A DNA stretch of 32,000 bases from Methanopyrus kandleri AV19 (GTDB taxonomy: Archaea > JAADCQ01 > Methanopyri > Methanopyrales > Methanopyraceae), in the NCBI RefSeq assembly GCF_000007185.1, contig NC_003551.1:330001-362000 (forward strand), in the 5' to 3' direction. How positions within the stretch are numbered: the stretch's first letter is position 1; each line of letters begins with the position of its first letter. Under the pieces are notes generated by a model, which saw only the letters and a list, made by a program, of their open reading frames with translations, did not search any database and was not told the DNA's origin. Made by a program: the position numbers and the translations under genes. Of this stretch, positions 2,123 to 32,000 are shown piece after piece.

Positions 2123-3190
2123 TTAACAGACGATATGCGTGCGCCAAACCGCGAGACATGAGCACTTGAGACCCTCAAGCCTGCCGATATCCTGCGTACG
2201 AGTGAACTCCCGGAGGGCCCGGGCGACACGCCGGGAACATCTCGGACAGTTGGACGGACCTCGAGGAGTTCCGGCCCCGCTCGTATCCACCAGCAGATCG
2301 ACCCTATCACCTAAGGTCCCTTTCACCTTCCTAGCGACCTCCACGCAGGTCCACAACCAGGGCGGTCTGTAAAGCCCGACACGCCAAGCTTTCTCCAGCA
2401 CGGTCTCCCTATGGACCGTGGTGGGGCATATCGAAATCCTAGTGCAGCCGGCTAGGTGGGCATCGACGCAGGACATATACGCGTCCCTGATGGCCTCCGC
2501 CTCGGAGAGGAAGGGGAGCTTCAGCATCACGTACGCCTTGGGGATCCCTCCGTACTCCCTTACCTTCTTCACGGCCTTGGCGAATTCACGGAAGGAAAAG
2601 CCCTTGTTCATGGACGCGCGCAGCTCGTCGTCACTGGTTTCCAACCCGATTCCCACCTCGAAGGACTTCCCGTCCAAGACCTCCGTGATCAACTCCAACC
2701 GCTCGTCCGTGATGAACTCGGGGCGAGATTCGAAAGATACCTCCGTCACCAGCTCGTTCTCGGCGAGCCGACCTAGTATCTCCCGAACGGCTTCGTCGGG
2801 CACTTCCTCAGGGTCTAAGAAGCTACCCGACGTGAACAGTTTGACTCCATGCGGTGAGTCCGGCCGGTGTCGGGAATAAGCTCGCTCGAACTGGCGTATC
2901 AGGAGCTCCGGCGGCACCCTCGTACCCGCGCCCTCGAGCGGGTAGGAGCAGAACACGCATCCTCCGGTCTCGTGGAACCATCGGCAGCCCCGAGTGGACA
3001 GCACGATCACTACACTACGATCCGCTCCCGTGACTCGGTCGGGTTGCTTCCACGCCGCCACGTACCGGTCGGGCCGTCCTCGGAACCGCACGGTAAACAC
3101 CCGGACCGAGTCAGTGCCGGGCTCAATCTTCATCCACAGGATCCGCGACGCAGGCCTTTCATCACGCCCCCGGTAGCCCGAACGATCCAT
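2123..3190 (-). CDS. Radical SAM protein, TIGR01210/RaSEA-like (archaeosine-pathway type)
   Basis: The Cys cluster GCRWFHETGGCVFCSY is followed by the TSGSFLDPEEVP and GLETSDDELR motifs typical of Elp3/RaSEA-like radical SAM enzymes. The start could instead be the internal MKIEPG at 3133. Confidence 0.8.
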   Translation of the reverse strand: MDRSGYRGRDERPASRILWMKIEPGTDSVRVFTVRFRGRPDRYVAAWKQPDRVTGADRSVVIVLSTRGCRWFHETGGCVFCSYPLEGAGTRVPPELLIRQFERAYSRHRPDSPHGVKLFTSGSFLDPEEVPDEAVREILGRLAENELVTEVSFESRPEFITDERLELITEVLDGKSFEVGIGLETSDDELRASMNKGFSFREFAKAVKKVREYGGIPKAYVMLKLPFLSEAEAIRDAYMSCVDAHLAGCTRISICPTTVHRETVLEKAWRVGLYRPPWLWTCVEVARKVKGTLGDRVDLLVDTSGAGTPRGPSNCPRCSRRVARALREFTRTQDIGRLEGLKCSCLAVWRTHIVC

Positions 3191-5152: not shown

Positions 5153-6226
5153 ATGATTCCACCGTTCCAAGCTTTAGTAACGTGTCCCGCCGGGTTCGAA
5201 TTCCGTTGTGTCGAAGAGCTCGAGGATATACTCAAAGAGCAGGACCCGTACGCGGAGGCGGAACCTACGTACTTCAAAGGCGTCGTAGTGGTGCGATCGG
5301 ATCTAGAACCGGAAGAGATCGTCGAAATGATGAAAGATGCGGACACGGATTGGGTAGCTAAGATCGTCCCCATCCACCGAACCGTACGCGCCGACCTGGA
5401 CGTGATGAAACGCACGGCCACGATCCTAGCGCGACGGAAGCTGGACGAAAACACGTCGTTCGCAGTACGATGCCGAAAGCGGGGCCAACCACCGTTCGGA
5501 CAGCGAGAGGTCGAGGTGGAGGTAGGTGCGGCGGTACAGGAGGCGACCGGCGCCCCCGTGGACTTGGAGAATCCCGACTACTACGTCTGGATCGAGGTAC
5601 TACAGGATACCGCCGGGATCTCAGTGGTCCCTCCGGATCTCATCGTCAGCAAAGAAGTCAAGCGAGTACGCAAATGGAGTCCCGGGATGAGACCTATCTC
5701 CAGAGCTCAGCTCAAACTCAGGGAGCTACTGAAGCGCCATCCGTACATCGTACGGGAAGGTTCCGACGTGATCGACCTCGGGGCCGCACCGGGTGGTTGG
5801 AGCTACGAACTGGCGAGAAGAGTAGAGCCAGGGACAGTATACGCCGTAGATCCGGGGGACTTACACCCGAAGGTTCTCAAGCTCGACAACGTCGTACACC
5901 TCAAGAAAAGGGCCGAAGAGCTAACCGAGGACGACATCGAGGGTCGTATCAGGTTGGTCACGAGCGATCTCAACAGGATCCACACCGAAGCCACGGAGGT
6001 CACTCTCAGCGTCGCGGACGAATTCCTCGAGCCTGGGGGATTCATAGTACAGACGGTGAAGCTGGCCGTTGACCCGTCTACCGGGGAATACGCCGCGCCG
6101 GACGTGGAGACGGCGGTCTCAGAAGTCGAACTCGAATATGAGCGCCGCGGGTACGAGATACTGGCTATCGAGCGCTTGAAACGGAATACACCCAACGAGC
6201 GGACTCTAGTAGCTCGGAAGGTGTGA
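5153..6226 (+). CDS. THUMP domain fused to an FtsJ/RrmJ-type RNA 2'-O-ribose methyltransferase (RlmM-like architecture)
   Basis: The start is ATG 5153, 1 nt after the trpS stop; the track ORF start at 5075 overlaps trpS. The N-terminal half has a THUMP-like pattern (FAVRCRKRG...VDLENPDYYVWIEV). The C-terminal half has SRAQLKLREL, DLGAAPGGWSY, TSDLN and VKL (FtsJ motif I and K-D-K-E elements). Confidence 0.85.
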   Translation: MIPPFQALVTCPAGFEFRCVEELEDILKEQDPYAEAEPTYFKGVVVVRSDLEPEEIVEMMKDADTDWVAKIVPIHRTVRADLDVMKRTATILARRKLDENTSFAVRCRKRGQPPFGQREVEVEVGAAVQEATGAPVDLENPDYYVWIEVLQDTAGISVVPPDLIVSKEVKRVRKWSPGMRPISRAQLKLRELLKRHPYIVREGSDVIDLGAAPGGWSYELARRVEPGTVYAVDPGDLHPKVLKLDNVVHLKKRAEELTEDDIEGRIRLVTSDLNRIHTEATEVTLSVADEFLEPGGFIVQTVKLAVDPSTGEYAAPDVETAVSEVELEYERRGYEILAIERLKRNTPNERTLVARKV

Positions 6227-15315: not shown

Positions 15316-15639
15316 TTAGAGGAGGGCGTAAATCCCTAGGGAAATCAACAGCATGTACGACGCCGCACCGCGAACGGAGAACCCTGCAGCGCCGAAGTGG
15401 CCCGACTTAAGCTCTTCCGCACGGACTGCGAGGGCTAGGATCCCGGTCAGCAGACCAGAGACTGCTCCAACGGGACGGAGTATCGGCCATAGGATGGAGA
15501 GAGAGCATGAGGCGGCCGCTATGACGCCGAGGATGACAGCCAGTCTGAGCGGGAGAGATCGACGGATCATAGCGGGCATAGCGAATTCAATTGCAACGCC
15601 GGCGGAGAGTCCCGCGAGAATTATCTCGCTTATAGCCAA
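15316..15639 (-). CDS. Small integral membrane protein (3-4 predicted TM helices)
   Basis: The 107-aa protein is almost entirely hydrophobic segments. Its start overlaps the end of the TusA-DsrE gene by 10 nt. Confidence 0.6.
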   Translation of the reverse strand: MAISEIILAGLSAGVAIEFAMPAMIRRSLPLRLAVILGVIAAASCSLSILWPILRPVGAVSGLLTGILALAVRAEELKSGHFGAAGFSVRGAASYMLLISLGIYALL

Positions 15640-16286
15640 ACCACATCCACACCCGGATCCGTGATTAGCTTGAGAAACTTTGAAGCTCCGACGACTTTGA
15701 CACCATCCAGGAGATCGTCGGAAGTGATACCCCTGGCTTGAATGCTTAATTCACAAGCGCATGCCTCGACGTTTCTCAGGACTTCCCGGGCCTTATCTAT
15801 CAGCGGAGGAAATTCTGGATGTCGGATTCTTTCAACTTCTCGCTCAACGAGCACGGTGACACCGTCCATGAAGCCGAAGATTACGACGTCCAAATCCATC
15901 GCCAACGCTGCCTCCGACATTAGGAACGTCGCGTACGCACGCTCCGGATTAGCGACGCCGGTACTTTGTGCTATCATAACCGAATCCGTGTCGGTCGACG
16001 GTAATGATCCGGCACACGTCCTAACGGTACCGTCGGTCGCGGTACTATCGGTCTCGACGCCACCGACGCGGATCAGCATGCGTATGTCTCCATCCGTTTC
16101 TTCAACCTTCAACACCTCATGTCCTCCATCCTGAACTAGTTCCCTTATGTCGTTGGCAATACCCTCCGAGTCGACGATAACTTCCAGCACCTGTCCGGGC
16201 TCCATTTCCTTGAGTTCTTCCGCCACCATTACGGACGGCCCAGGACAGGCCGCACCACGCACGTCAAGCCGCCGATCGGGCTTCAT
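15630..16286 (-). CDS. TusA/SirA-like domain fused to a DsrE/DsrF-like domain (sulfur-carrier fusion)
   Basis: The N-terminal LDVRGAACPGP is the TusA Cys-Pro motif. After a Thr/Asp-rich linker comes a DsrE-like domain (VMIAQSTG...DLDVVIFGFMDGV...ACACELS). Confidence 0.85.
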   Translation of the reverse strand: MKPDRRLDVRGAACPGPSVMVAEELKEMEPGQVLEVIVDSEGIANDIRELVQDGGHEVLKVEETDGDIRMLIRVGGVETDSTATDGTVRTCAGSLPSTDTDSVMIAQSTGVANPERAYATFLMSEAALAMDLDVVIFGFMDGVTVLVEREVERIRHPEFPPLIDKAREVLRNVEACACELSIQARGITSDDLLDGVKVVGASKFLKLITDPGVDVVWL

Positions 16287-16302
16287 GATTGTGTCCCCTG
16301 TG

Positions 16303-16339
16303 CGATTGTTCGCGATTGTCGATCAAACGAGAACAATCG
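16303..16339. promoter_or_regulatory. Three copies of CGATTGT(T)C: an inverted pair plus an internal direct copy; candidate operator
   Basis: CGATTGTTC at 16303-16311, CGATTGTC at 16313-16320 and GAACAATCG at 16331-16339 (the exact reverse complement of copy 1) all lie between a TATA-like element and ATG 16286. Confidence 0.4.
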
Positions 16340-16346
16340 TTGGAGG

Positions 16347-16358
16347 CAATTTAAGTTT
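16347..16358 (-). promoter_or_regulatory. BRE/TATA-like element (minus strand GGAAAA-CTTAAATTG) for the TusA-DsrE gene
   Basis: This AT-rich block lies about 65 nt upstream of ATG 16286 and is preceded on the minus strand by a purine-rich GGAAAA. Confidence 0.35.
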
Positions 16359-16398
16359 TCCGATCCCCTGGTCCGACGACATAACAGTGTGAAAAAGT

Positions 16399-16696
16399 GT
16401 CCCTGGACCGTGGGACCCCCTCTCATCCCGGCGCCTCGCGGCGTCGAGGGGGCCCCGCCGGCTCTGTACCGGGGGTCCGTAACGGACGCTCATCGGGTCG
16501 GCTTCGGCCGCCTGACGTCCGTCCCTGGAAGGAATGAGCGTGAAGAGCCTCCGTCGGCGCCGCAATCATCACGTGTCAGGCTCGGGCAAGAGTCTTCATC
16601 GGCTGAACCGTCGACGATGGCGTCGGATTTGAAGATCTCGCTCGAGCGTCACGACGGATCGACCGTGGAAAGGGGCCCTCCGACCTCAGGGACGGA
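16399..16696. ncRNA. Candidate structured non-coding RNA or structured 3' UTR; class and strand unknown
   Basis: This roughly 300-nt gap has no credible ORF in six frames. Many GC helices are visible: 16399-16405/16687-16693; 16416-16422/16446-16452 enclosing 16432-16443; 16475-16487 (GUCCG-UAA-CGGAC); 16486-16493/16534-16541; C(UUCG)G hairpin 16499-16510; 16612-16625; palindrome 16639-16648. A minus-strand T5 tract at 16396-16392 could act as a terminator. Confidence 0.35.
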
Positions 16697-17828
16697 GGAT
16701 GTCGATCTTCCCCTCTTCAACGGCCTCGATCGCTCTCTCCATCAGTTTCTTCGCGAGGTACGCCGAAGACTCACGGGCGACGATCGGGAGCTTCCGTCCT
16801 TCGACTTCGAGCTCCCCTAGGTCGACCTCGACCGCCGGACAGAACTCGTGACAATAACCGCAGTGGAAACAGTCGCCGGTCCGGAGGTCACCGTACGGAT
16901 ACGGGCATTTCTCCTCGAGTCGGCACGGGTCGCAGTTCTCGCAGCGGTCGGGGTTCCAGCGAACCGTCTCCTGTACCCACACGTCGGCGTACGTGGTCTC
17001 CGCGATGGGCGTCCTGTCGGAGAGCTTAACGACCGGCAGGACGGCGTCGGAGTGATCGCGCTCCAGGAACGGGAGCGTCTCCTCGGTGACCGCGATCACC
17101 GAAGCTACGCCGGCTATGTTCTCCGGTCCCGCGGACGTCCGGTACTCACCCATGAAGGTGGGATCACACTCGGTGAGGTTCGCGTGGAGTGTTAAGTTCG
17201 GGCGTTCTCGGGTGCTCCGAGTGCCCTTCCCCGTGATCACCCCGGGAGCCCCGCAAAACAGCACACGTCGGCCGGGTCGATGGAGCCGGAGTTTCGGATC
17301 GTGCTCCAGGGGGTTGTACCCACCGCATCCGCTGAAGGAGGCCTCCCCAGGTTCCAGAGGTCTCGGCGCGAAGATCGTCGACGCGGGTCGTTCGCCATCG
17401 TTGAATATCGCGGAGTAGTTGCGGAAACACGCACGGGTGGACGCGATCATCGCCCGTTCCAGCTCTTCTGGGCCGATCGTCGCTTCGTACTCACGACCGT
17501 CGTCCGCTACGGCGATGACATCGAACTCGTTACCCTCCGCTACGGTACGGAGCAAATAGGCCCCGGAAACGTCCCCGTGAGCCGTGGCCGGGACCACACA
17601 TTCGACGAGTCCGAGGCGCTCGTTAGGGCACGGACCTACGGGCAATCTTATGCCTTCTAAGTACACCTCCTCGAACCGGCGCACTTCACCGGGCTCAGCC
17701 ACGTGGAAGGACAGGATCCCGTAGACACCACTCATCAACCCGACGGTGGCACAAGTGACGGCATCGACGGATCGACGCTCACCTTCGGTCATGTCCCAGA
17801 ACTCGTCGATACGGACGACGGTAGGCAC
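16686..17828 (-). CDS. DUF39/COG1900 (homocysteine-biosynthesis-type) domain fused to a 2x[4Fe-4S] ferredoxin domain; methanogenesis marker 16-like
   Basis: The long N-terminal domain contains VTCATVGLMSG and FCGAPGVITGKGTRS. The C-terminus has CENCDPCRLEEKCP and CFHCGYCHEFCP. The start is GTG. Confidence 0.8.
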   Translation of the reverse strand: MPTVVRIDEFWDMTEGERRSVDAVTCATVGLMSGVYGILSFHVAEPGEVRRFEEVYLEGIRLPVGPCPNERLGLVECVVPATAHGDVSGAYLLRTVAEGNEFDVIAVADDGREYEATIGPEELERAMIASTRACFRNYSAIFNDGERPASTIFAPRPLEPGEASFSGCGGYNPLEHDPKLRLHRPGRRVLFCGAPGVITGKGTRSTRERPNLTLHANLTECDPTFMGEYRTSAGPENIAGVASVIAVTEETLPFLERDHSDAVLPVVKLSDRTPIAETTYADVWVQETVRWNPDRCENCDPCRLEEKCPYPYGDLRTGDCFHCGYCHEFCPAVEVDLGELEVEGRKLPIVARESSAYLAKKLMERAIEAVEEGKIDILRP

Positions 17829-26786: not shown

Positions 26787-26997
26787 CCTCTCACCCCCCT
26801 GAGACGATAAAGGTGTACCCGGCGGCCAGGCCGCCCGATCATCGACGGCACTACGGCCACTCACGGGCGTGACGGGAACCGATGTGCCGGGAGCGTGACC
26901 GCGGGGATCACCGCCGGGAGACTCCCGTCTCCCCCCGTCGGGGGCCCGGCGTGGACACTCGATCACCCTCATTACCATTTTCGGGGGATGCTCGACG

Positions 26998-29580: not shown

Positions 29581-30552
29581 GTGTTCCTACCCGAGATCGA
29601 CGATCGATGTCACGAGCTGGCGGAGCGCTACGGCGTTCGGCCTTACATGGTGGCCCGATATCTGACCTTCTTAGGACGGTCCGAAACCGAGAGACTTCTG
29701 AAACATATGGAGGACATCCGTCCGGCCATTCGGACGAATACTATCTTGATAGATCCTGAAGAACTTCGACGTGTCTTGGAAGAGAAGCGAGGATTCGAGC
29801 TGAAGCGCTGCCCCGAGCCCGTGGATGTGGGGTTTTGGATCCTCAACGACCCGCCTATCTCCATCGGCGCCACCTTGGAGTACATGATGGGGTACTACGT
29901 GCCCCAGGACGCCGCTTCCATGTTACCTCCGGTCGTACTGGACCCGAAACCTGGAGATCGAGTGCTCGACGCGTGTGCGGCCCCGGGTGGGAAGACCACC
30001 CACCTGGCCCAACTCATGGACAACGAAGGCACGTTGATAGCCATCGACGTGGACCCGGACCGCATGCGGGCGTTGAAGAGCAACCTAGCCAGATGCGGTG
30101 TCGCCAACGCGGTGGCCCTCCGTATGAACGCCCTCGACTTGCCGAGCACCGACTGGGAGTTCGATCGAATCCTTCTCGACGCGCCGTGCACCGGGGAGGG
30201 AACTATCCACAAAGACCCTTCTAGGAAGACTAGCCGCGATCCGGAGGACATCGCCACGTGTGCCAGGTTACAGCGCCGCTTGATAGACGCGGTCGTAGAT
30301 GTGTTGAGACCAGGCGGTGTGCTGGTCTACTCCACCTGCACATTCTCGCCCGAAGAGAACGAGCTGATAGTGCAATACGCCGTAGATGAACACGGACTGG
30401 AGCCGGAGCCCGTGGACGTGGGGTGGGCGGACAGGGGACTACGCGTGCCGGGGGTCGAGCCGAAGGTGCGACGGACGTGCGCCCGGCTGTATCCCCACAG
30501 ACACGGTATGGGGATCTTTTTCGTCGCTAGATTACGGAAGCCCCTCAGCTAA
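29581..30552 (+). CDS. NOP2/Sun (RsmB/Trm4) family RNA cytosine-C5 methyltransferase
   Basis: The SAM motif is VLDACAAPGGKT. The catalytic motifs are DRILLDAPCTGEG (motif IV, PC) and VYSTCTFSPEENE (motif VI, TC). I chose GTG 29581 as the start; ATG 29539 is also possible. Confidence 0.9.
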   Translation: MFLPEIDDRCHELAERYGVRPYMVARYLTFLGRSETERLLKHMEDIRPAIRTNTILIDPEELRRVLEEKRGFELKRCPEPVDVGFWILNDPPISIGATLEYMMGYYVPQDAASMLPPVVLDPKPGDRVLDACAAPGGKTTHLAQLMDNEGTLIAIDVDPDRMRALKSNLARCGVANAVALRMNALDLPSTDWEFDRILLDAPCTGEGTIHKDPSRKTSRDPEDIATCARLQRRLIDAVVDVLRPGGVLVYSTCTFSPEENELIVQYAVDEHGLEPEPVDVGWADRGLRVPGVEPKVRRTCARLYPHRHGMGIFFVARLRKPLS

Positions 30553-30612
30553 GGCCCCATCGATCACCCATTAATAGCTCACCAAGGGATTCCTTCGTCA
30601 TCGGGGCGCGCA

Positions 30613-31065
30613 TTGGGAGCATTGGAGGAGTTCGAGTGGAAGCTCGCCGAACACGATGTTCCTATTCCCGTCCGTCAGGACGCTGTGGCGCTGTACCGTG
30701 TGTTACTGGAGACGGTTCGAATTTGGGGGATAGAGAGGGAGGAAGGCGTTCGGGAGAGTAGAAGCGAAGTCCGCGCACGGATCAGCTGTGAGGGACTCGA
30801 TTGCGCCGTCCTCACGAAGGTGGGTGAAGATCGGCCACAACTTCTCCTGAGAACTGTCTTGGGTCCGAGGTTGCTCGCGGAAGTGTTCGAGCGGGCACAC
30901 GAGAGCGGCGTCAGATCCTTCCACTTCGACCTTCAGGGGCGAGGATTGCGGGTAGAGGGCGAGTACGACGTGGGCATCGTTCAGATCAAGGTCGTCGGCG
31001 GGGGAGCGGGGTGGGAGCTGCTGGAGGATTTAGAGAAGAGGGGGTTCTCTGTAACTGGGTTATAG
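30613..31065 (+). CDS. Hypothetical protein
   Basis: This 150-aa ORF has a TTG start and a TATA-like CATTAATAGC about 40 nt upstream. I recognise no family. Confidence 0.55.
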   Translation: MGALEEFEWKLAEHDVPIPVRQDAVALYRVLLETVRIWGIEREEGVRESRSEVRARISCEGLDCAVLTKVGEDRPQLLLRTVLGPRLLAEVFERAHESGVRSFHFDLQGRGLRVEGEYDVGIVQIKVVGGGAGWELLEDLEKRGFSVTGL

Positions 31066-31115
31066 TCGGTCGGCAAAGGGAGAGTTCCTCACACGTTCGG
31101 ATAGCGGGGACCTCC

Positions 31116-32000
31116 TCATCCCGATGCGACGAGCTCCTCACAGAGGTCGATGAACCGTTCCCGAGCGTTGCCCCCGAAGAGTTCCTTACCTCTCTCCCCC
31201 ATACGCTTCAGGTCTTCGGGATCGATGCTCAGGGCTCGACTCACGGCTTTTACGACCTCTTCGGGGTTAGAAGCGTCTTCGGCTGCCACCGCAACACCGC
31301 GTTTCTCCAACTTCTTAGCGGTAACGTATTGATGGTCCCTGAGCACGTCCCTCCTGGGCAGAACCACCACCGGCTTCCCCAGCGCGGCGGCCTCCACGGG
31401 AGTGGCTCCCCCTAGGCACACGACGAGATCGGCTGCCTTCAACAGGGCCGGAAAATCGTGGAAGAAGCGCTTCACCACGATCCCAGAACACAGTCCATTC
31501 AGCGCTCGTTTCAAGCGCTTGGGATCCATGGCGTTCCCCGTGTTCACGACCACTTCCCAATCCCTAAGTAGCCCCTCTTCGGCGCACCTGACGAGCCCCT
31601 CCAGAGCGGGCTTGTAGCCGGCCGAGCCCGTAGTCCACACGAGTACTCGATCTCCCAGGTCGTACTTCTCCCGGGCCTCCTCCGGATCGGCCTCCTCGAA
31701 GCTCCGAGGCAACACGATACCGACGTTGATCACCCGATCGCCGTAGTACTCGGCCATATCCTCATCCCAGACTCCGATGATGTCTGCGCACAACTTCGCG
31801 ACCTTACCCGAGACGGAGACTACGTCGGTCGGCTCGTAATGTGCCACGGGTAATCGCTTGAACTTCCCGGCGATCATCGGCCCGATAGCCACACCGGCCC
31901 CCGTGGACAGGATTAGATCGGGCCGCACGTCACGGAGTACTTTGGAAGCCGCTAGGTAGTTCTTCAGCCCGCCCAGAGCGGCCTTCCAGGAGGTATCACC
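31116..32000 (-). CDS. MurG-like glycosyltransferase (GT28 family); N-terminus lies beyond the window end
   Basis: RPDLILSTGAGVAIGPMIAG, ADLVVCLGGATPVEAAALGKPVVVLP and a C-terminal helix are typical of MurG/Alg13-14-type enzymes. The reading frame stays open upstream of the track M (31928) to position 32000. Confidence 0.85.
   Translation of the reverse strand, partial: GDTSWKAALGGLKNYLAASKVLRDVRPDLILSTGAGVAIGPMIAGKFKRLPVAHYEPTDVVSVSGKVAKLCADIIGVWDEDMAEYYGDRVINVGIVLPRSFEEADPEEAREKYDLGDRVLVWTTGSAGYKPALEGLVRCAEEGLLRDWEVVVNTGNAMDPKRLKRALNGLCSGIVVKRFFHDFPALLKAADLVVCLGGATPVEAAALGKPVVVLPRRDVLRDHQYVTAKKLEKRGVAVAAEDASNPEEVVKAVSRALSIDPEDLKRMGERGKELFGGNARERFIDLCEELVASG

Follow-up and report, generated by a model that had tools for sequence, protein, structure and literature searches.

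The stretch of DNA considered here comprises genome positions 330,001–362,000 of Methanopyrus kandleri AV19. We refer to the whole of it, 32,000 nucleotides (nt), as the window, and coordinates below are window positions unless marked otherwise. Within it, two genes on the minus strand flank an intergenic gap at 16287–16685: a homocysteine-biosynthesis (HcyBio/DUF39)–ferredoxin gene upstream (16686–17828) and a TusA–DsrE gene downstream (15630–16286). We conclude that positions 16397–16603 of this gap, read on the minus strand, very probably form a conserved Methanopyrus cassette of two guide RNA genes: C/D box small RNA (sRNA) 28, abbreviated sR28, and behind it an H/ACA sRNA of ~145 nt with two K-turn hairpins. 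The structure observed at the locus is thus explained by known biology, that of ordinary guide RNA genes. This view is drawn from sequence, conservation, covariation, and target complementarity, from which we infer that the H/ACA part would be expressed and that both units would bind proteins and direct modifications.

A BLAST search with the minus strand against 40 relatives gave matches solely in the five other Methanopyrus genomes compared (G001–G005, the AV19 genome being G000). In four of these five, the match is limited to query positions 98–304, which correspond to window positions 16397–16603. The conserved block of 207 nt is present in all six genomes, with identities to AV19 of 73–87% in each of the other five; the six genomes differ by 13–27%, and these six distinct sequences, from the single genus Methanopyrus, are the whole comparative basis of what follows. 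On the minus strand, the aligned block begins exactly with a C box and ends exactly with an ACA. A T5 tract (16392–16396, minus strand) stands directly after that ACA box (ACA-CUUUUU) and is likely an archaeal transcription stop; it is retained in G001, and pyrimidine-rich tails take its place in the other genomes.

The block lies between both sulfur genes in four of the six genomes. In G004, its upstream neighbor is NadC (quinolinate phosphoribosyltransferase, QRPTase), and in G002 the downstream gene is one other than TusA–DsrE. Because the block is intact despite both of these changes, it appears to move as one unit, independent of its neighbors. A spacer of 82 nt from the HcyBio stop codon to the C box (16604–16685, minus strand) occurs solely in G000 and G001, where it contains a weak A/T box (CUUCAAAU) ~27–34 nt upstream of the C/D 5′ end. 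In G002, G003, and G005, the HcyBio stop codon TGA falls inside the GAUGA of the sR28 C box, and in G004 the TGA of NadC does so as well. In four genomes, a guide RNA gene thus shares nucleotides with the end of the upstream coding sequence (loci L003 ~1499–1508, L013 ~5724–5730, and L014 5493–5499).

The secondary structure is supported by the same alignment. Of the alignment cells, 94% are paired, versus 34–56% when the partners are slid, and compensatory changes occur in seven base pairs, compared with 2.3 ± 1.2 in shuffles. Both strands fold better than dinucleotide shuffles (z = −3.3 for the minus strand and −3.1 for the plus strand), but only the minus strand accommodates the G-U pairs and all of the box motifs. 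The helices present include 16482–16488/16516–16522 and 16412–16422/16446–16456.

The first unit of the cassette, at 16543–16603 (minus strand, 61 nt), is an already known RNA. Su, Tripp and Randau (2013) list the identical sequence in their Table S1 as C/D box sRNA 28, with 45,100 reads and with circularized reads, and predicted no target for it (PMC3695527). Dennis et al. (2015) list it as MKAsR28, with targets in 16S and 23S rRNA (PMC4644070). Its minus-strand elements are a terminal stem GCC/GGC (16603–16601 with 16549–16547), which closes the C/D K-turn, a C box AUGAAGA (16599–16593), a D′ guide of 13 nt (16592–16580), a D′ box CUGA (16579–16576), the three nucleotides CAC, a C′ box GUGAUGA (16572–16566), a D guide of 12 nt (UUGCGGCGCCGA, 16565–16554), and a D box CGGA (16553–16550). 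The features by which archaeal box C/D sRNAs are recognized can thus be read directly from the sequence: the four boxes in the order C, D′, C′, D and guide spacers of ~12 nt, a terminal stem with a compensatory change from G-C to A-U in G004, and, for both guides, rRNA complementarity of at least 9 bp spanning the N+5 position. The guide cores are invariant in the six genomes, and the box positions that do vary, the fifth of C/C′ and the second of D/D′ (CGGA/CCGA/CUGA), are tolerated ones.

The D guide can form 11 bp with 16S rRNA 509–519, a target that is invariant in the four available 16S sequences, and the N+5 rule points to C512 (E. coli 540, on the 3′ side of helix 18). The core of the D′ guide (CUCUUGCCCG) pairs over 10 bp with 23S rRNA 2664–2673, where the rule points to G2665 (E. 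coli G2464, helix 89), the N+5 position being the second pair from the end of the duplex; a second match of this guide, 9 of 10, lies at 16S 475–484. For the D′ guide, Dennis et al. likewise give targets in both 23S and 16S. For the D guide, Dennis et al. give the site as 16S G521, which is G516 in the present numbering, in contrast to C512 here, and a CCGA 4 nt upstream was therefore apparently taken as the D box. We favor the CGGA at 16553–16550, and with it C512 as the predicted site, because of the covariation of the terminal stem, the 12-nt spacer that results, and the CGGA/CCGA/CUGA variation among genomes.

In the H/ACA part, hairpin 2 (16398–16464, minus strand) has the form of a canonical unit, with a lower stem, an internal-loop pocket, and an upper stem. 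The lower stem of 6 bp joins CCCCGG (termed X2, 16474–16469) with CCAGGG (X3, 16406–16401). The pocket is formed by a 5′ guide CGGCGGG (16460–16454) and a 3′ guide CCCACGG (16414–16408), and the upper stem by CCCCCUC/GAGGGGG (16452–16446 with 16422–16416). On the upper stem sits a K-turn, GA…GAUGA, with tandem sheared G-A pairs, followed by a GCGA-capped apical hairpin (16443–16432); the ACA box is at 16400–16398, and all of these elements are on the minus strand. Archaeal H/ACA units are expected to have a GA stem of ~10 layers and an ANA box 14–16 nt 3′ of the pair that closes the pocket (PMC4652768). In G000, the GA stem consists of eight pairs plus two sheared G-A layers, 10 layers in all, and the ANA box is 14 nt from the stem. 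In G001 the box reads AUA; in the other five genomes it is ACA. Two pairs of the upper stem covary, and the basal layer between guide and stem differs from genome to genome, being G-U, G-C, A/G, A/C, or absent. In the lower stem, CCCCGG/CC(A/G)GGG, 97% of the alignment cells are paired, with no compensatory change.

With the pocket boundaries fixed in this way, a scan of 16S and 23S rRNA finds a single match, 5′-CCGUGGG-UC-CCCGCCG-3′, in which 7+7 Watson–Crick pairs flank an unpaired U-N dinucleotide at 16S U570. The runner-up in the same scan has a score of 9, and the match stays unique, at a cut-off of 8.5 or more, when 29 tRNAs, RNase P RNA, and signal recognition particle (SRP) RNA are added. 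Shuffled or random genomic guides reach its score in 0.1–0.3% of trials, which corresponds to a null P of ~0.001–0.003. All fourteen target-pairing bases of the guides are invariant in the six genomes, as neighboring positions vary, and the target is identical in the four available Methanopyrus 16S genes. Its E. coli counterpart in the alignment is U598 of helix 21, in the region where protein S8 binds. Hairpin 2 is, by complementarity, a canonical pseudouridylation guide predicted for 16S U570. One published M. kandleri RNA, H/ACA Nr6, could be considered as a second guide for this position; its hairpin 2 reaches 4+6 pairs only, with G-U pairs among them, and is ambiguous. A pocket scan without constraints was rejected as a means of calling targets, as it gives many chance matches with scores of 13–20 for all seven M. 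kandleri H/ACA RNAs. A 12-nt match from such a scan, between the apical loop of hairpin 1 and 23S 2829–2840, is not conserved in the other genomes and was likewise discarded.

Hairpin 1 (16475–16528, minus strand) is a different case. Its strand begins with CCAGGG (X1, 16528–16523), immediately 5′ of a 7-bp stem ACGGACG/CGUCCGU (16522–16516 with 16488–16482). Above the stem are a K-turn, UCA…GAUGAG, and an apical stem CGGC/GCCG. A 3′ single strand UACGGAC (16481–16475) follows the stem, and after it the element 16465–16474, which consists of X2 and then U-ACA (the first ACA, 16467–16465), again all on the minus strand. Both geometric rules hold, with a GA stem of 10 layers and an invariant ACA 14 nt downstream. 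Compensatory changes affect three pairs of the stem and one of the apical stem, whose loop is variable. What hairpin 1 lacks is a two-stranded pocket, because pairing of X1 with X2 leaves 0–1 nt in the 5′ loop strand. X2 can be used in two ways, either as the 5′ strand of the hairpin 2 lower stem (X2–X3) or as the partner of X1. The alignment cells are paired in 97% of cases for X2–X3 and in 83% for X1–X2, and in all six genomes the energies prefer X2–X3 or are near level with X1–X2 (within 0.6 kcal/mol). Because there is no 5′ pocket strand and X2 is needed by hairpin 2, we do not class hairpin 1 as a canonical unit. The strand common to both hairpins is the one structurally unusual feature of the cassette.

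The best constrained target of hairpin 1 is 16S U1186 (E. coli U1205, helix 34), with P ~0.01. The pairing amounts to 8+3 bp in G000, G001, and G004 and to 5+4 bp in G002, G003, and G005. Pseudouridines are found at 16S-1167 in A. fulgidus and 16S-1162 in S. islandicus; the spacing in 13 archaeal 16S sequences fits U1186 to the A. fulgidus site, although not decisively. U1186 is, tentatively, a lead suggested by complementarity rather than a finding. By analogy with the systems discussed below, hairpin 1 could be either an atypical guide without a lower stem, acting mainly through its 3′ strand, or an auxiliary hairpin as in Pab19.

Between the C/D and H/ACA units lies an invariant linker motif (UCACGCUCA, 16535–16543, minus strand). 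The motif UCACGC(U)CA is duplicated in the G004 lineage (L014 5433–5447). A complement of UCACGCUCA was sought in rRNA and in C/D guides, and none was found there.

The region had previously been described from its letters alone, and parts of that sequence-only reading can now be placed in this framework. It had suggested a stable structured minus-strand RNA with K-turns and an ACA/T5 end, which both Infernal and covariation support; the covariation analysis it proposed yields the seven compensated pairs given above. The motifs on which it drew are all present: the GCGA hairpin at 16432–16443 (minus strand), four GAUGA-type minus-strand motifs, the ACA with its T5 tract (16400–16392), a perfect 10-nt inverted repeat (16518–16527/16687–16696), and helices of 8 nt (16486–16493/16534–16541) and 7 nt (16399–16405/16687–16693). 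These last three, once taken as defining the architecture, do not belong to the conserved fold. The 10-nt repeat and the 7-bp terminal pairing reach into the last codons of the upstream gene and exist in the AV19 lineage (G000/G001) only, and the 8-bp helix joins the linker to the K-turn strand of hairpin 1 and is broken in G002 and G004. The proposed extent of ~300 nt, as a single RNA or an elaborate 3′ untranslated region (UTR), gives way to the shorter block 16397–16603 with two guide units in tandem. The plus-strand C(UUCG)G hairpin does exist, but as the complement of a minus-strand stem that is kept by covariation and not by sequence. Nor is the region GC-rich, since its G+C content of 0.61–0.62, versus ~0.60 for the whole window, is not above that of its flanks.

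Searches against Rfam bear on the same description. At gathering thresholds, there is no match to any family in the window, and readings of the gap as SRP RNA, RNase P RNA, or a riboswitch find no Rfam match, which for the first two agrees with the sequence-only reading. That reading had found no likeness to C/D or H/ACA guides either, and on this point it erred, as the region is exactly a C/D plus an H/ACA guide unit. Under permissive settings, several archaeal C/D families match 16548–16603 on the minus strand, the best being sR1 (36.8 bits, E = 1e-7), which falls under the gathering score.

How might the two units be made? The interval between sR28 and hairpin 1 is ~20 nt and contains no A/T box. 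Because this leaves no room for an internal promoter, co-transcription of both units is most likely. Because, in addition, the C box overlaps the stop codon of an open reading frame (ORF) in four genomes, transcription together with the upstream gene and subsequent processing is probable. In those four genomes, the cassette would be transcribed as the 3′ end of the upstream mRNA, and the units would then be separated by processing. A/T boxes similar to that of the AV19 spacer stand at the same upstream position in four (Nr1, Nr3, Nr4, and Nr5) of the six published M. kandleri H/ACA genes. Once released, sR28 would assemble with L7Ae, Nop5, and fibrillarin and direct 2′-O-methylation of 16S C512 through its D guide and of 23S G2665 in helix 89 through its D′ guide. 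In hairpin 2, L7Ae would bind the K-turn, and the ACA box and the lower stem of 6 bp would be contacted by Cbf5–Nop10–Gar1; pairing of both pocket strands with 16S, 7+7 bp, would then present U570 for isomerization. With its H/ACA spacing, hairpin 1 would be a second K-turn hairpin of the L7Ae type. Genes for Cbf5 and Nop10 occur in the genome, and Gar1 is MK0859 (PMC3695527).

Several known systems resemble parts of the cassette. First, Pab21/snoR9 of Pyrococcus (Rfam RF00065) carries an H/ACA guide and a C/D motif on one transcript, and in P. abyssi forms with and without the C/D motif occur in vivo. The order is reversed, with the H/ACA part 5′ in Pyrococcus and the C/D part 5′ here, and Pab21 has one H/ACA hairpin; the sequences are not similar, with no Rfam match to the cassette at E values up to 10. 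Second, eukaryotic composite small Cajal body-specific RNAs (scaRNAs) such as U85 combine both guide types in one transcription unit, as here. The C/D domain of a scaRNA, however, encloses the H/ACA domain, and the mature molecule is not cut, whereas here the units lie side by side and sR28 is released.

Third, in Pab19 (RF02794) and M. kandleri H/ACA Nr5, the 5′ strand of the lower stem (CCCCCGG) comes immediately after a 5′ hairpin, a UACA opens the 5′ pocket strand, and the 3′ end reads CCGGGGG-CACA, all reminiscent of the arrangement here; in the Pab19 family, the 5′ hairpin is a non-guide. They differ in guide sequences and target, a global alignment scores little better than shuffles (z = 2.5), and the Pab19 Rfam model has no match in the cassette region. 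Similarity of the new RNA to H/ACA Nr1–Nr6 as a set is weak (z = 0.5–3.8), and no C/D-like match occurs within 250 nt of any of these six. As a side observation, Nr5 itself (G000 genome positions 1500940–1501100; L024 301–408) has 55.4 bits against Rfam Pab19, above the gathering score of 55 and therefore indicating an orthologue of this Pyrococcus H/ACA family; the other five published M. kandleri H/ACA RNAs have no gathering-level Rfam match. Finally, the atypical H/ACA(-like) RNAs of Pyrobaculum and S. islandicus (sR148 and sR563) invite comparison with hairpin 1 only; in these K-turn hairpins the lower stem is shortened or can be dispensed with. S. islandicus sR148 is active with a single 3′ guide and duplexes down to 6 bp, and the lower stem of sR563 must unwind for substrate binding (PMC11077068). 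These crenarchaeal RNAs stand alone and mostly lack an ACA, whereas hairpin 1 has retained its ACA, at 14 nt, and is joined to a hairpin of canonical form.

Several observations weigh against the H/ACA half of the cassette. First, Su et al. list six other H/ACA RNAs, with 3,000–35,300 reads, at 356.8, 576.4, 720.5, 1419.1, 1500.9, and 1618.7 kb of the genome, and this one, at 346.4 kb, is absent (PMC3695527). The RNA may be rare, unstable, or unexpressed in culture. In the literature searched, we found no other paper that lists M. kandleri H/ACA RNAs and no pseudouridine map of M. kandleri rRNA. Second, compared with the Rfam H/ACA families (HgcE/F/G, Pab19, snoR9, and others), the H/ACA part has as its best match HgcG, at 12.2 bits versus a threshold of 77. 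Third, the lower stem of hairpin 2 is invariant and so without support from covariation. Fourth, when pocket boundaries are left free, GC-rich guides score 10–12 by chance, and higher without any constraint. Fifth, a 5′ pocket strand is missing from hairpin 1, whose target match falls to 5+4 bp in three genomes. Finally, there are just six distinct sequences from one genus; a pattern scan of metagenomes for further homologues brought only identical copies of three known types and three chance matches. These points are set against the fixed-boundary match to U570 and its conservation, and the cassette of a known C/D sRNA plus an H/ACA guide remains the explanation that we prefer.

One could go further and regard the locus as a C/D guide fused to two interlocked H/ACA guides. 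In this view, hairpin 1 would be active without a lower stem and mainly through its 3′ strand, and hairpin 2 would borrow the ACA and 3′ flank of hairpin 1 as its own lower-stem and 5′ pocket strands. The U1186 and U570 units could then not hold their active folds simultaneously and would alternate, and one precursor, together with sR28 (16S C512 and 23S G2665), would yield three or four rRNA modifications. A 3′-strand guide without a lower stem is a type so far shown only in Crenarchaea. We consider this elaborate form possible, although on balance doubtful.

It is also unlikely that the mature product is one bifunctional C/D–H/ACA RNA of ~207 nt, resembling scaRNAs or Pab21, instead of two RNAs. 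The constant linkage of the two units, the mere ~20 nt between them with no promoter-like A/T box, and the coexistence of Pab21 forms with and without the C/D motif in P. abyssi all speak for such a molecule. Yet sR28 has been sequenced as a discrete species of 61 nt with circularized reads, which argues that at least a large fraction is cut out.

Alternatively, sR28 could be the only functional part, with the ~145 nt behind it being a decaying H/ACA gene or a structured 3′ trailer or terminator of the sR28 precursor. The absence of the ~145-nt RNA from the abundant small RNAs of Su et al. (PMC3695527), the lack of a proper pocket in hairpin 1, and the lack of a matching Rfam family speak for this. 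A decaying gene, however, would not hold 7+7 target-pairing bases invariant while their neighbors vary, nor are the compensatory changes in both upper stems, the ANA box at 14 nt in six genomes, or a block boundary placed exactly at the ACA what it would leave behind. We therefore regard this explanation as improbable.

K-turns bind L7Ae, which can regulate mRNAs, and in four of the six genomes the sulfur genes flank the block, so that the hairpins might instead act in cis on TusA–DsrE or HcyBio, for instance as a regulatory leader or trailer bound by L7Ae. This seems very improbable. The block is kept with NadC upstream in G004 and without TusA–DsrE downstream in G002, the T5 tract separates it from the TusA–DsrE gene, and the bipartite complementarity to rRNA would be left unexplained. 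That the gap encodes a small protein is extremely improbable: an 80-residue ORF (16323–16565, minus strand) and a 143-residue ORF (16389–16820, plus strand) exist mechanically, but neither they nor any other ORF in the gap matches Pfam, indels of 1–2 nt occur within the conserved block in the inter-species alignment, conservation tracks RNA boxes and stems and not codons, and the plus-strand frame is antisense to the end of the HcyBio gene, in keeping with the earlier judgment that the gap has no credible ORF.

The cassette is not the only RNA locus in this part of the genome. Su et al. place H/ACA RNA Nr1 in the same window at 26812–26947 (minus strand), along with C/D sRNAs 27, 29, and 30 and the MK0356 3′ UTR RNA, at positions ~3110–3169, 30535–30606, 31062–31155, and ~15302 (PMC3695527). 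None of these five RNAs is found at an Rfam gathering score. Outside the sRNA block, CGATTGT(T)C repeats and an A/T box lie upstream of TusA–DsrE at 16303–16358 and are partly kept in G003 and G004 (BLAST query segments 362–399 and 371–414). The only relative of the TusA–DsrE protein found outside the M. kandleri genome is in a metagenome-assembled genome of the Methanopyri. Among the rRNA sequences compared, the annotated 16S copy of NZ_CP062204.1 (“E. coli C311,” L026 186–1727) reads GGTAATACGTAGGTGGCAAGCGTTATCCGG around the 530 loop, and the adjacent 23S is ordinary. This differs from the usual E. coli 16S sequence, and the copy may have a foreign or chimeric origin within that assembly.

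The “orphan” intergenic structure can thus be accounted for by an ordinary kind of gene, with no new class of RNA needed. The cassette would add a seventh candidate H/ACA guide to M. kandleri, an organism that grows at up to 122 °C and whose rRNA modifications are studied as an adaptation to heat, and it predicts a specific pseudouridine in helix 21 of 16S rRNA. Following Pab21, it would be the second archaeal example in which guides for methylation and pseudouridylation are physically linked.

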